IMG/VR virus record: IMGVR_UViG_3300001528_000208
Span: 32,001-96,000 of that record
Direction: 5' to 3' (one strand)
DNA: 64,000 bases
Source of the DNA: a virus
Lineage: Duplodnaviria; Caudoviricetes
Of the stretch, positions 8,563-50,397 are shown one piece after another. The position numbers and the translations under genes were made by a program. The notes beneath the pieces were generated by a model that ran no database searches, was not told where the DNA came from, and was given only the letters and a program-made list of their open reading frames with translations. How positions within the stretch are numbered: the stretch's first letter is position 1; every line of letters begins with the position of its first letter.

Positions 8563-8786
8563 CGATAGTATTGGGTTAATCAAAAACTTCTTGAAAGTTT
8601 TACGACCCTTATTAAAGGAGAAGCATTTCCCGTGAAGGTGTATTCCTTCCAAAACAACCCCGCGATACTGTTGCACGGACGCTTCTTGCATGGTCGAAAG
8701 GCAAATTCGATTTCATGTGTAACAGTTATGCAAGTAATCTATGCGGGATTGGTTATACCAAGTCTTGTACACGGGGTATTTTATTT

Positions 8787-9956
8787 ATGAATAGTGCGCA
8801 AAGACACGAATTTCGATATTATAGGCGTAAAGAAAAGCGTCTTTCGAAAAAGATTAAACGATGCGAAGCTATCGGTGGAATAGATGGTGTATTTACATTT
8901 GGCGATTTATATAAATGCGGCAAAGCGTGCTGTAATGGCGTTCGGTGGAAGCATAGTGTGCAAAATTTCGAAATGCACTTGTTTTCAACTACGGTTAAAT
9001 CGTTGGCTGACGTAAAGAACGATAAATGGGAAAGCAACGAATATTTCAGATTTGTTTTAACGGAACGTGGTAAAACACGCGATATTGATGCGCCCAAAAT
9101 TGTTGACAGGCAAATCCATAAAGCTATTACGCGAAACATTCTTTTGCCGTTATATACACCAATGATGATTTACAATAATGGGGCAAGTCAAAAAGGAAAG
9201 GGATTCCACTTTAGCTCAAATGAACTGAAGAAAGATTTGCGTGAACATTTTAGGAAGTATGGTCGTGAAGGTTGGATACTTCTAATTGATTTCAAGAAAT
9301 TTTTTCCAAACGCAAAACACGCAAATATATACAATAATCATGAAGAATTAATTTTTGATGAAAGATTGCGTAGATTGTGTGATTATGTTGTTGGATTTAA
9401 CAATAATTCTGGATTTGGTATGCCGCTTGGCGTAGAACCAAGTCAAGCGGAAATGATTTTCTTCCCATGGAAACTTGATTGCTATTTAACGTGCCAATGT
9501 GGATTTAGTGGATGCGGTCACTATATGGATGACTATTATATTATAATACCGCCAACGATGAATCCGCATGATGTTCGTGCGAAAGTATTATCTTTTGCCG
9601 AATCGCTTGGAATAAGAGTAAATCGCGATAAATCATACTTCGTTAAACTTACAAAATCGTTCCGATATTGTAAAATACGATATCGACTTACGGATACTGG
9701 TGCCGTTAAAACACTTGGTAGTAGACCTGCTTATAGGCGAGCTGCAAGGAAAATTCGTGCATTTAAACGCATGGTGGACGAAGGCAAAATGAAATATGAG
9801 GATGTCTACTGTTCTATGAATTCTATAATATCGTATTTCGATAATTTCGACGACAATAACCGTTCTTTTAGATTGAAACGATTGTTTGTTAAAACGTTTG
9901 GATTTAAATATGACGACCTAATGACATTTAGAAGGAGGGATTTCTATAATGTATAA
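8787..9956 (+). CDS. DGR reverse transcriptase (alternative start 8715)
   Basis: DFKKFF, GVEPSQ (DGR-type SQ) and YMDD motifs; adjacent to the TR and avd. Confidence 0.95.
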   Translation: MNSAQRHEFRYYRRKEKRLSKKIKRCEAIGGIDGVFTFGDLYKCGKACCNGVRWKHSVQNFEMHLFSTTVKSLADVKNDKWESNEYFRFVLTERGKTRDIDAPKIVDRQIHKAITRNILLPLYTPMMIYNNGASQKGKGFHFSSNELKKDLREHFRKYGREGWILLIDFKKFFPNAKHANIYNNHEELIFDERLRRLCDYVVGFNNNSGFGMPLGVEPSQAEMIFFPWKLDCYLTCQCGFSGCGHYMDDYYIIIPPTMNPHDVRAKVLSFAESLGIRVNRDKSYFVKLTKSFRYCKIRYRLTDTGAVKTLGSRPAYRRAARKIRAFKRMVDEGKMKYEDVYCSMNSIISYFDNFDDNNRSFRLKRLFVKTFGFKYDDLMTFRRRDFYNV

Positions 9957-40571: not shown

Positions 40572-41808
40572 GATATCCGCTATGCTTTAGCATAGTCGGC
40601 AAAAGAAAGAGAACTATATCGGAAAGGAAGTGATTGTAGATATGTTGATTGCCTACAAATATAGAATGTATCCAAATGAAGAACAGAAAACTTATTTTTC
40701 AAAATGCTTCGGTTGCGTCAGATTTATCTACAATCGTATGCTTGCTGATAAAATCGAGTTTTACAATAAGACAAAACAAAACCTGAAAAATACGCCAGCC
40801 CAATATAAAGACGAATTTCCATGGCTTCGAGAAGTCGATGCGCAAGCGTTGTCAAATGCTCAGATGAATTTACGGACAGCGTACAACAACTTCTTCAAGC
40901 GACCAGAAGTTGGGTTCCCAAAATTCAAAAGTAAGAAAACGCGATATGATTCTTATACTACAAATCAAGCCAATATCCGCGTGACAGAACGACACATTAA
41001 CCTTCCGAAAATTGGACTTGTCAGGATTAAGAAACACAGGAATTTTTTTGGAACAATCAAACACGCTACCATTACAAGAACGCCATCGGGAAAATATTAT
41101 GTTTCGGTTCTTGTTGAACAAGAAGATATTCCAAAGAAAATTCCATGTGATTCTGAACTTGGAATAGATTTGGGAATCAAGGGGTTCGCAACCACTTCTG
41201 ATGGCAAAGTGATTGAAAATCCGAAATACTTGAAAAAATCAGAAAAGAAACTGCGGAAGTTGCAGAAAGACTTGTCTCGTTGTAAAAAAGGAAGTAAAAA
41301 TCGAGATAAATGTAGAATTAAAGTTGCACGTTGTCACGAGAAAATAACGAATCAACGCAAGGACTTTCTAAACAAACTTTCAAAAAGACTGATTGATGAA
41401 AACCAAGTCATATGTCTGGAAACATTGAAAGTTAAGAATATGATGAAAAATCATAAACTCGCTAAGTCTATTGCTGATGTATCATGGTCAGAATTTGTAC
41501 GACAACTGGAATACAAAGCAAACTGGTACGGAAGAGAAATTGTGAAAATTGATTCGTGGTATCCAAGTTCGCAGTTGTGTAGTAAATGCGGATACAAAAA
41601 TACAGAAATAAAGGATTTGTCTGTTAGAGAATGGGTGTGTCCGCAATGTGGAACTGTTCACGATAGAGACATTAACGCTGCAATAAATATTCTTAATGAA
41701 GGATTGAGAATAAGAACCGTAGGAACTACGGGGATAGCCTAAGTAAACTTGTCTCGTTAGAGATATTGATTAGGAAGCACCGGTGCTTTATCATCGTGTG
41801 TAGTTCAC
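40572..41808 (+). mobile_element. IS200/IS605-family (IS1341-like, tnpB-only) element; boundaries approximate
   Basis: Subterminal hairpins share a TGCTTTA core (40580-40595, 41781-41796). The right end reads GTAGTTCAC, and an omega-RNA-like 3' region overlaps the tnpB end. Confidence 0.7.
40630..41742 (+). CDS. tnpB: TnpB RNA-guided nuclease
   Basis: [29 protein letters not shown] and [11 protein letters not shown] motifs. Confidence 0.95.
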
Positions 41809-45160: not shown

Positions 45161-45166
45161 TATTAT
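45138..45166 (+). promoter_or_regulatory. SigA-type promoter of ncRNA-1
   Basis: TTGACA-17-TGATATTAT. Confidence 0.8.
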
Positions 45167-45180
45167 AATGTCATAGCACA

Positions 45181-45452
45181 AATCGGCGTGTGTTTGGTGG
45201 AATAGCTGGTGACACCTAAAATAACCCAGCGACCAGCCTGAAAGGGCATTGACACTGGCGCGTTCCAAGGGGCGCGTTAAGCCAAAACCGGTATTTTGTG
45301 GCAACAAACAAGGGTTTCCTCCGGTATATAAGGTGGTGCGAAATCATCCCATCTAAAATTACTATACTGATGGGCATTGTTGCGAACGGCAATAGCGGAT
45401 ACGGATGTTTGATGGGGCGTCAAGCCGTATAGCGATTAAACCCCTGCCGATT
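45181..45452 (+). ncRNA. Putative structured ncRNA-1 (~275 nt), family not recognised
   Basis: Own promoter; terminal helix AATCGGCG../..TGCCGATT; several internal hairpins; module shared with ncRNA-2. Confidence 0.7.
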
Positions 45453-45472
45453 CTATTTTTTAGGTGGTCAAT

Positions 45473-48043: not shown

Positions 48044-49017
48044 ACAAGGAAGGTTTTAAGAAACTTTGTCTGCCGGTCAAAGAAGATTTGCTTGCGTGGC
48101 TTTATCAGCAGTTAAGCGAATATTATGGGCTGGCGAACACGGTCAACGGTGGCGACTATCTGTTTTTCAGCGGCAACTGCCCGACAATGCTTTGTGCGCA
48201 TCTTGATACGGTGCATAAGCGTCAGCCGACCAAGATTGTCGATGATGGTAACAAGGTAAGTTCGCCCATGGGAATTGGCGGTGACGACCGCTGTGGCGTC
48301 TATTCCGTTCTTGCTGTGTTGAAGGCAACGGAAGAAAGCGGCAAGCGTCCGTATCTGTTTTTCAGCACGGATGAAGAAGTCGGCGGCGCGTCTACGAAGC
48401 GTGCGGCGCAGGATATCAAGGGTCGTGTAGCTGGCGTCGGCTACATGATTCAGATTGACCGTCGTGGCAAGCAGGATTCGGTCTATTATAAGTGCGACAA
48501 CAAGCAGTTCAAGAAGTTCATTGACGAACACGGCTTTGTCGAAGCAAGCGGTTCGTTTACGGACATCTGCAATTTGTCACCCGTGTTTGACCTTGCAAGT
48601 GTCAATCTGTCGTGCGGCTATTATAGCGAACATCATCCCGAAGAGTATGTTATCTATACAGAATTGCAGGATACAATCGACAAGGTGGTGCAGATTATCG
48701 CCGACACCAAGGACGACATTATCTATCCGTATTGTGAAGCGAAGCCGAAGCCAACGCAGAATTACTATGGCAATAAAGGGTCGCACTTTTGGTCGAAATA
48801 CTATACGAAGGGTGACGAAGTTTTCACGAAGTACGGTTCCAGCGCCGTCTACAAGAAGCCGAATTACAGCAACCCAATTTCTGGCGTATATCTGCCCGCT
48901 TATCATTCGTTCATTGTGCTGGACGTCAAGGATGATTTTATCCAGATTGAATACAATGGCGAAAAAGTGTGGTCTACGTCTTGGAATTTTCAGCCTGACT
49001 ACGACAGCCTGTATTGA
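48040..49017 (+). CDS. M28/M20-type zinc peptidase with a C-terminal SH3-like extension
   Basis: AHLDTVH, GGDDRCG, DEEVGG, DRRG, GSFTD and GYY.EH motifs. Confidence 0.85.
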   Translation: MNKEGFKKLCLPVKEDLLAWLYQQLSEYYGLANTVNGGDYLFFSGNCPTMLCAHLDTVHKRQPTKIVDDGNKVSSPMGIGGDDRCGVYSVLAVLKATEESGKRPYLFFSTDEEVGGASTKRAAQDIKGRVAGVGYMIQIDRRGKQDSVYYKCDNKQFKKFIDEHGFVEASGSFTDICNLSPVFDLASVNLSCGYYSEHHPEEYVIYTELQDTIDKVVQIIADTKDDIIYPYCEAKPKPTQNYYGNKGSHFWSKYYTKGDEVFTKYGSSAVYKKPNYSNPISGVYLPAYHSFIVLDVKDDFIQIEYNGEKVWSTSWNFQPDYDSLY

Positions 49018-49042
49018 CAAAAACCAAAACGTGTGATATTAT
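49014..49042 (+). promoter_or_regulatory. SigA-type promoter of ncRNA-2
   Basis: TTGACA-17-TGATATTAT; overlaps the peptidase stop. Confidence 0.8.
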
Positions 49043-49050
49043 AATGGCAA

Positions 49051-49500
49051 CGGTTGAAACGTAGGCTTAGAAGCAGCCATCGTCTAAGGAGTTTATCGCG
49101 GGGCGAGTCTTGACGGTCTTTGTGCCGTGGGAAGTATCTGCTATTGCAATCATATAGAATGATATTTCTTGACCGCCTATGATTGCCGTGGATAATTTGG
49201 CGTAGTAGCACATCAACCGCATGGTGGAATGGCGGGTGACACCTAAAATAACCTCGCCACCATATCCCACAAGTTCCGCAATCGGGGCAGAGTGTAAAAT
49301 GCGAAAGCACACTTGGAAGGAAAGCCGTGGGATTAACAGCGCCCATTGAAATCCGTGCGAATATTATTAACATGGTAGAATCGCCTATCTGCAACGCCGC
49401 CACAACAACGTGGATGGCTATGCGTTAGGGCTACCGGCTAAACCGTCATTTCAAGACGGTAAGGATTAGCTGTTGCGAACCGCGAAAGTGGGATAGCGGG
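49051..49500 (+). ncRNA. Putative structured ncRNA-2 (~450 nt) with a 23S rRNA GTPase-centre-like domain
   Basis: GTAGGCTTAGAAGCAGCCATCGTCTAAGGAGT...GGCGTAGTAGCACA closed by CGGTTGA/TCAACCG. Lies between two promoters with no credible ORF. Confidence 0.75.
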
Positions 49501-49506
49501 AAGCAC

Positions 49507-49535
49507 TTGACAAAATGTAAAGTGTGTGTTATTAT
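49507..49535 (+). promoter_or_regulatory. SigA-type promoter of tRNA-Glu
   Basis: TTGACA-17-TGTTATTAT. Confidence 0.8.
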
Positions 49536-49552
49536 AATAACATAAAGCAAAT

Positions 49553-49628
49553 GGCCCCGTGGTCAAGTGGTCTAAGACTCCGCCCTTTCAAGGCGGCAAC
49601 GGCAGTCCGAATCTGCTCGGGGCTACCA
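49553..49628 (+). tRNA. tRNA-Glu(TTC)
   Basis: Acceptor GGCCCCG/CGGGGCT, anticodon arm CCGCC-CTTTCAA-GGCGG, T-loop TCCGAAT, encoded CCA. Confidence 0.92.
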
Positions 49629-50217: not shown

Positions 50218-50293
50218 GGCGCACTCGTCTAAAGTTAGGATGCCGCCTTCTCACGGCGGAGATAGAAGTTGCAATTCCTTCTGTGCGTCACCA
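50218..50293 (+). tRNA. tRNA-Glu(CTC), atypical T-arm
   Basis: Acceptor GGCGCAC/GTGCGTC, anticodon arm CCGCC-TTCTCAC-GGCGG, encoded CCA, terminator immediately downstream. Confidence 0.82.
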
Positions 50294-50397
50294 AGGCGTA
50301 GAAATACGCCTTTTTCTATGGGTGTTGACAAAAACAAAATATAGTGCTATTATAATAGCATAGGCAAGCAAAACATAAAACATTAAAACGGAGGTCT

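Follow-up and report, generated by a model that had tools for sequence, protein, structure and literature searches.

Small-RNA island of the phage genome

The stretch of DNA analysed here (the window, 64,000 nt) belongs to a 104.8-kb viral record that is 98% complete. The DnaE-type polymerase of the phage has its nearest counterparts in Clostridioides and Bacillus phages, and the genome further encodes a diversity-generating retroelement and an anaerobic ribonucleotide reductase. The affinity of the polymerase and the presence of the reductase point to a phage of an anaerobic Firmicute, and reads from pig gut and wastewater give weak evidence of relatives there. Beside the tail genes, an RT-2 RNA (Rfam RF03077, 105 bits; window positions 8571-8797) overlaps the start of a reverse-transcriptase gene (8715-9956), and this locus probably constitutes the diversity-generating retroelement. 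The phage genome also contains a transposase-like ORF (phrog_506, E 1e-144) at window positions 40630-41742.

At 49051-49219 on the plus strand, between a peptidase-like gene and another non-coding RNA, lies a 169-nt element that is present as a single copy in the 104.8-kb record and resembles the GTPase-associated centre (GAC) of 23S rRNA. The features of this element, referred to here as the GAC mimic, and of its surroundings are as follows; position numbers other than window coordinates follow E. coli 23S numbering.

49014-49042 (+): promoter P1, consisting of TTGACA (49014-49019), a 17-nt spacer and TG-n-TATTAT, with 11 of 12 consensus positions (sigma-70/SigA)
49051-49219 (+): whole GAC mimic, matched by covariance model R1 with 110 bits, E 8e-30, over model positions 1-156 of 156
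49051-49057 (+): 5' strand of the closing helix (equivalent to the top of H42), pairing with 49213-49219; 7/7 Watson-Crick pairs, 7/7 pairs covarying and 97% of cells paired in the family
49059-49083 (+): H43 mimic (1057-1081) with the 1067 loop; U1060 is 49062, A1061 is 49063 and A1067 is 49069
49084-49092 (+): C1082-UAA-G1086 mini-hairpin (C49084, G49088), followed by G1087, A1088, G and U; GAGU is 49089-49092
49093-49195 (+): lineage-specific 103-nt insert that leaves the core between 1090 and 1091; covarying closing helix, predicted Y-shaped three-way junction
49196-49212 (+): UUUG linker and H44 mimic GC-GUAGUA-GC, followed by A1101, C1102 and A1103; A1095 is 49204
49213-49219 (+): 3' strand of the closing helix, complementary to 49051-49057 and covarying in the family
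49220-49506 (+): second conserved non-coding RNA on the same predicted transcript as the mimic; 93% identity to the relative L052 over aligned bases (240/258), 96% in the conserved 3' part
49507-49628 (+): consensus promoter P2 and a called tRNA-Glu(UUC) gene (49553-49628)

As stated in the original prediction, the mimic directly follows a SigA promoter. Transcription from P1 is predicted to start at about 49049-49050, and the mimic begins 1-2 nt later. No terminator was found between the mimic and the downstream RNA (49220-49506), and the two are predicted to share one transcript. Among the contigs from public runs, one from an RNA library spans P1 and then diverges. A depth spike over 49048-49109 in public runs was considered as a sign of mimic expression and rejected, as the reads are true 23S rRNA of other organisms.

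P1 is one of four near-identical consensus promoters on the plus strand within 1.3 kb (window positions 49014, 49507, 49677, and 50325), all consisting of TTGACA, a 17-nt spacer, and TG-n-TATTAT or TATATT. Each of them heads a small RNA or short gene, giving rise to a dense RNA island, and a similar leader (CATA..AGCA..AAT) comes after several of them. The RNA directly downstream of the mimic is a distant paralogue of a promoter-driven RNA at 45163-45462, with a 41-nt hairpin that is 88% identical (E 1e-7) and contains compensatory changes. Both RNAs are conserved and structured, measure about 285 nt, and gave no Rfam match; they have in common the first hairpin and, close to the 3' end, a GUUGCGAAC...AUAGCGG motif. 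The 3' end of the mimic (GUAGUAGCACA) is similar to the leader of the paralogous RNA (GUCAUAGCACA); the possibility that the latter is a remnant of a mimic was rejected, because a similar leader is also found behind the tRNA promoter P2. Furthermore, one hairpin of the 49220-49506 RNA has a 7-nt loop (AUUUCAA) similar to the CUUUCAA anticodon loop of the adjacent tRNA-Glu. A weak tRNA-like match at 50219-50289 scores just above threshold with the Rfam tRNA model (29.8 bits) and has no ARAGORN call; it is followed by the sole good intrinsic terminator of the island (50293-50312).

A self-closed replica of the GTPase-associated centre

The element rebuilds the top of H42, H43 and H44 of 23S rRNA around a 103-nt insert, and the original prediction, which had been made from the bare letters, agrees with the sequence to the base. 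This includes the perfect outer helix (CGGTTGA/TCAACCG) and the closure of the insert by a helix of its own (UUAUC/GAUAA plus GCGG/CCGU), which covaries in the family described below. The minimum-free-energy fold of 49045-49225 recovered the outer helix alone and was no better than that of shuffled sequence (z = -0.01); such a null z-score is expected where tertiary contacts hold a fold together, but it lends the structure no support.

The helices and their order are the same as in the 23S GAC (top of H42, H43, and H44; E. coli 1051-1108), which is also known as the 58-60-nt uL11/thiostrepton domain. The element has an identical 1067 loop, and U1060-A1088, G1071, C1072, the G1091-C1100 and C1092-G1099 pairs, the GUARNA hexaloop with A1095, and G1087-C1102 are all retained. 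In contrast to the 23S domain, the phage element is free-standing and closed on itself by an unrelated helix, and both the uL10-binding part of H42 and the rest of the rRNA are missing. It further differs from the 23S GAC in the 103-nt helix-closed insert and UUUG between positions 1090 and 1091, in the A instead of U at position 1101, and, at the level of the phage family, in the relaxed conservation of A1067 and A1070.

A widespread family of phage RNAs

To describe the family, covariance model R1 was built from 33 diverse members (alignment A3), including the window sequence, with the rRNA-derived structure imposed. In addition to the full-length match in the window, whose score leaves no room for a chance resemblance, R1 recovers the corresponding element of the relative L052 with 101.6 bits, although L052 was outside the training set. 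An exact 17-mer of the H43 loop matches at least 118 viral contigs, none of which is 23S rRNA, and a 17-mer from the family-specific 3' half adds at least 120 further contigs. In two sets of 100 viral loci, R1 yielded 102 and 100 matches, corresponding to at least about 200 copies in about 190 viral contigs. When the 3' signature was searched in a bacterial genome collection, full elements were present in 18 of 120 loci among the matches listed, spanning several phyla; the remaining loci are probably, for the most part, chance matches to the 17-mer.

Full-length copies also occupy unannotated gaps of five cultured phages, namely Pseudomonas phages pf16 (between tRNA-Asn and tRNA-Pro) and UNO-G1W1 (between tRNA-Trp and tRNA-Arg), Xanthomonas phage XacN1 (adjoining a 2'-5' RNA ligase gene), Cronobacter phage GAP32, and Aeromonas phage 4_4572. 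Pectobacterium phage CBB (L139) has a copy as well. In UNO-G1W1, the antisense "hypothetical protein" CDS0126 (L334, 1570-1677) lies wholly within the mimic RNA and is probably a spurious gene call. R1 used without genomic context does not separate compact mimics from real rRNA. Paenibacillus phage Pd_22F (H10), considered as a compact Gram-positive relative, was rejected, as its match proved to be real 23S rRNA from a gene located where the record ends. In this genome (L120, MZ092003.1, about 83.4-85.2 kb), a 1.7-kb unannotated gap consists of the 5' part of the 23S rRNA gene, which is host DNA that was either packaged or misassembled.

The window element shows the features of the family throughout. 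It has the 7-bp self-closing helix and an H43 with a UUAGAAGCA-type loop, U1060, and the covarying 1057-1059/1079-1081 stem. At 49089-49212 it contains the signature of GAGU, a helix-closed insert, UUUG, GC-GUARNA-GC, and A-C-A, which is 94%-100% conserved among members. Phages of Gammaproteobacteria and Firmicutes have the same combination of GAGU-insert-UUUG with A1101, in contrast to the bacterial consensus (GAGUGCGUAAUAGCUCA). As the signature is uniform across phages and unlike that of bacteria, the family spreads among phages rather than being recaptured from each host.

Some variation in architecture was observed. Two mimic copies lie close together in some phages and one bacterial contig (L045, 5126-5360 and 5443-5706; L328, 3996-4343 and 5204-5385), and a weaker second match is found beside the first in L070, L090, L102, L043, and L096. 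The 5' halves from L127, L150, L159, L183, L189, and L209 have a second insertion site, with extra sequence after GCAGCCA at about position 1077/1078 inside H43.

Across the family, the mimic is closely associated with tRNA genes. A tRNA on the same strand is located within 20 nt on at least one side in 54 of 144 dereplicated elements and within 500 nt in 84 of 144, and an initial count of tRNAs or tmRNAs lying no more than 500 nt away gave 112, all of them on the strand of the element. Such tRNA-like spacing suggests that the RNA may be released by tRNA-processing nucleases. No linked protein family emerged from an all-against-all BLAST of flanking ORFs at 141 dereplicated loci, where none occurred in more than eight loci; the commonest neighbours were HNH and GIY-YIG homing endonucleases and Pnkp-RNA ligase (5 to 8 of the 141 loci). 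A search of the phage for a uL11 homologue found none. The lack of a linked protein family, together with a phage without uL11, implies a partner from the host.

Covariation and base conservation

The covariance-model search of related phages thus retrieved homologs, and covariation among them is strong. With the rRNA-derived structure, 95.5% of the cells in the 33-sequence alignment are paired, compared to 67.7% in shuffles, and the covariation score is 0.735 vs. 0.176 after shuffling and at most 0.21 in controls with slid partners. Both sides changed in 16 of 21 pairs, including the seven closing pairs, the lower H43 stem, 1082-1086, and four insert-closing pairs. This covariation and the hundreds of relatives bear out the view that the element is a selected, folded, and self-closed mimic and not rRNA debris. 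At the level of predicted structure, the alignment establishes that the 5' and 3' ends pair, that the GAC is reproduced in its secondary structure and in its tertiary-contact bases, and that a variable insert leaves the junction.

Two details of the original prediction look different in the light of the family. The C-G pair at 1082-1086, which had been read as a structure-preserving change, is indeed present, but it is merely one of two covarying states (U-A in 36 members, C-G in 23). The A at position 1061, singled out as a special stabilising variant, turned out to be nothing unusual in the family (U 33, A 19, G 6, C 2); this position is not conserved in cellular rRNA either (PMC6239185).

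Base conservation was scored separately for each half and only in members retrieved via the other half, so that no search seed contributed to its own score. Ten positions are invariant (U1060, G1063, C1072, C1075, G1087, A1088, G1089, U1090, G1093, and A1098), and GAGU is found in 60 of 60 members. Nearly invariant are G1059, G1071, A1077, C1079, A1084, A1085, U1094, A1101, and the G1091-C1100 and C1092-G1099 pairs. Within the H44 loop, G1093, U1094, A1095, and A1098 are conserved at 96%-100% (A1095 at 96%) and positions 1096 and 1097 vary. The bases at the tip of H43 are relaxed, with 82% A and 15% G at position 1067 and 70% A and 30% G at position 1070, although A1070 is invariant in cellular rRNA despite making no tertiary contact (PMC6239185). 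The uL11 C-domain contacts nucleotides 1058-1060, 1062-1065, 1075-1083, and 1088 (PMC1802607). Of these 17 interface nucleotides, 14 are at least 77% conserved in the phage family and the other three vary as covarying pairs; the insertion site at 1090/1091 lies outside the listed interface. The H42 part is a generic variable helix, and the uL10 site is therefore not reproduced. Taken together, this pattern fits better with selection acting on the fold and the uL11 surface than with selection to preserve all factor binding.

Insert length varies between about 24 and 350 nt, and little sequence is held in common across 88 non-redundant examples, with motifs recurring within sub-families. Compact members are almost without an insert and still retain the core.

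Comparison with known RNA families

The element does not belong to a named Rfam family, as had been supposed: a scan of 49018-49552 against Rfam 15 gave no match at gathering level. The archaeal LSU model aligns 49059-49104 to the H43 region, but this local match (46 nt) reaches 18 bits vs. a gathering score of 50. No 23S markers and no sarcin-ricin loop occur in the locus, setting it apart from bacterial 23S rRNA (RF02541). With E-values of up to 10, the window locus matches LSU rRNA and IMES-2 only and compact members match LSU rRNA only; the IMES-2 match (E 0.049, 17.5 bits vs. a gathering score of 54.7) was rejected as probably due to chance. A full-text literature search found no description of such an RNA. 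With no matching family in Rfam 15 beyond LSU rRNA and no description found, the phage GAC-mimic family appears to be new.

Several known RNAs share individual properties with the mimic. GOLLD (RF01998) and ROOL (RF03087) are likewise phage-encoded structured RNAs located in tRNA islands without a linked protein, and the Rfam scan found no match to either of them in sequence or structure. The stable RNAs species 1 and 2 of phage T4 (rnaC, rnaD) have the same properties. To our knowledge, none of these RNAs copies an rRNA domain. The closest functional analogy is provided by the leaders of ribosomal-protein operons (L1, L10, L20, S15, S4, and S8), which, as far as summarised in PMC7247131 from Meyer 2018, are off-ribosome RNAs that copy the rRNA site of a ribosomal protein and bind that protein. 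In that summary, the leaders are cellular, act in cis at the 5' end of their own operon, and mostly copy only a few contact bases, whereas the phage element is a near-complete domain copy among phage tRNA and ncRNA genes and precedes no ribosomal-protein gene. Downstream of the mimic are an ncRNA and tRNA-Glu, the phage has no uL11 gene, and the leader survey reports no uL11 leader (PMC7247131). The ToxI-like pseudo-antitoxin RNA of phage PhiTE is reported to be a phage RNA that imitates a host RNA to neutralise a host protein (PMC3475682). It mimics an antitoxin repeat and not the ribosome, and for the GAC mimic a comparable decoy role is hypothetical.

Selection and recent gain or loss in the window lineage

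One relative of the phage lineage was found (L052, also represented by L331 and identical to L336), which has the entire non-coding block in common with the window phage. The upstream gene is 90.1% identical between the two, and 73 of its 97 differences are at third codon positions, about 22% of which differ. The element itself is 94.7% identical, indicating that it is under purifying selection. Two of the 66 bases in the core and seven of the 103 in the insert differ. All but one of the seven insert substitutions fall in predicted pairs and preserve the pairing, including one change from A-U to G-C. The insert is therefore under selection in this lineage as well, and the core may not be the sole working part.

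Contigs of two independent public runs (X1 and X19) join position 49044 to 49222/3 via 29 other bases, and one of them continues over 49223-49397 at 95% identity. These junctions indicate a close relative that has the same promoter and downstream RNA with an ordinary 29-nt leader in place of the mimic. Thus, the mimic is a discrete accessory module that was recently gained or lost in a small-RNA slot, and it is dispensable.

Possible functions of the mimic

We tentatively propose that the element is a gene whose product, a stable non-coding RNA belonging to a phage-wide family, acts as an off-ribosome ligand mimic, most likely for uL11, a reading that we consider quite possible but short of probable. 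The RNA would be transcribed from its own consensus promoter in the window phage and elsewhere in the family would derive from tRNA polycistrons, from which tRNA-processing nucleases may free it. It would then fold alone, like the isolated 58-60-nt rRNA domain, and act away from the ribosome by binding ligands of the GAC fold, the likeliest being the C-terminal domain of host uL11. RelA activation depends on uL11. RF1-dependent termination also depends on this protein (PMC1802607). No more than the tertiary fold is needed for uL11 binding, and the domain folds autonomously (PMC6239185), which is why host uL11 is taken as the binder of the mimic. The consequences of binding are the weakest steps of this proposal: uL11 might be withheld from new ribosomes, dampening RelA activation and RF1-dependent termination, or the uL11-RNA surface might be presented as bait. 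Sequestration faces a stoichiometry problem, since most uL11 is already on ribosomes. Two other ligands named in the original prediction are less suitable, as sequestration of uL10 is unlikely given the generic H42 helix, and a role as thiopeptide decoy would fit poorly with the G at position 1067 in about 15% of the members.

Other explanations account for parts of the data. The RNA might be a counter-defence decoy that soaks up an effector of the host or a competitor, such as an ADP-ribosyltransferase or nuclease attacking the GAC, and thereby spares the ribosomes. Islands of tRNA and RNA-repair genes are where phages maintain other countermeasures against toxins that target translation, and the mimic is at home in such islands, with Pnkp-RNA ligase within 3 kb of the element in 5 loci and the 2'-5' RNA ligase in XacN1. 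The recent swap of an accessory module, with a relative that lacks the mimic next to a downstream RNA of 95% identity, is also typical of defence and counter-defence genes. The toxin Tre23 ADP-ribosylates H44 at positions 1095-1098 (PMC8661411), and G1093, U1094, A1095, and A1098 are highly conserved in the mimics. Nevertheless, variation is seen at positions 1096 and 1097, Tre23 serves as a weapon between bacteria, no anti-phage system against the GAC site is known, and a decoy would have to be more numerous than the tens of thousands of ribosomes. We consider this explanation unlikely. We regard as still less likely that the core is a folding scaffold, in which the GAC-like junction would serve as a compact clamp, stabilised by ions or protein, that ties the ends together and displays the insert as the working part. 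The purifying selection on the insert with its compensatory pair, the motifs within insert sub-families, and the relaxed bases at the factor-contact tip (A1067 and A1070) are consistent with a scaffold. It would, however, need neither the uL11 contact surface nor A1095, the inserts differ widely in length and sequence, and the core is kept in compact members that are nearly free of an insert.

It appears improbable that the RNA traps, or serves as a platform for, the tRNA elbow, RelA, or a translation GTPase, all of which normally touch H43/H44. The conservation of A1095 and A1067 and the same-strand tRNAs within 500 nt of 84 elements speak for such a role, but the generic H42 part means that the uL10/bL12 stalk could not be recruited, the sarcin-ricin loop partner is missing, and G replaces A1070, which is invariant in cellular rRNA (PMC6239185), in 30% of the members and A1067 in 15%. 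Finally, the data refute a functionless fragment of host 23S rRNA or an assembly contamination, to which we assign next to no probability. Such an origin might be suspected from the H43 loop, which is identical to that of bacterial 23S, and from the Pd_22F match, which was real rRNA. Against it stand the absence of flanking 23S sequence, of the sarcin-ricin loop, and of any other 23S marker, a closing helix that is unrelated to 23S in sequence and yet complementary, the signature common to phages of Proteobacteria and Firmicutes and unlike the bacterial consensus, the strong covariation, and the element's own promoter.

Implications for phage biology

The only rRNA mimicry known to us is that of ribosomal-protein mRNAs, where it serves feedback control. 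A free-standing, near-complete viral copy of the uL11/GTPase/thiopeptide site would add a new kind of molecule to those used in host takeover or counter-defence. It is conceivable, albeit rather doubtful, that phages of many phyla wield a trans-acting replica of a ribosomal centre as a weapon, either disarming a putative, novel class of host immunity that attacks the GAC or capturing uL11 against the RelA/ppGpp alarm. If true, stand-alone RNAs that mimic an rRNA domain would represent a new class of viral counter-measure. Members of the family are very common, and their presence in cultured Pseudomonas, Xanthomonas, Cronobacter, Aeromonas, and Pectobacterium phages makes them amenable to bench work. 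Moreover, the family constitutes a natural experiment that contrasts the bases of the GAC domain needed for folding and uL11 binding with those needed for ribosome function.
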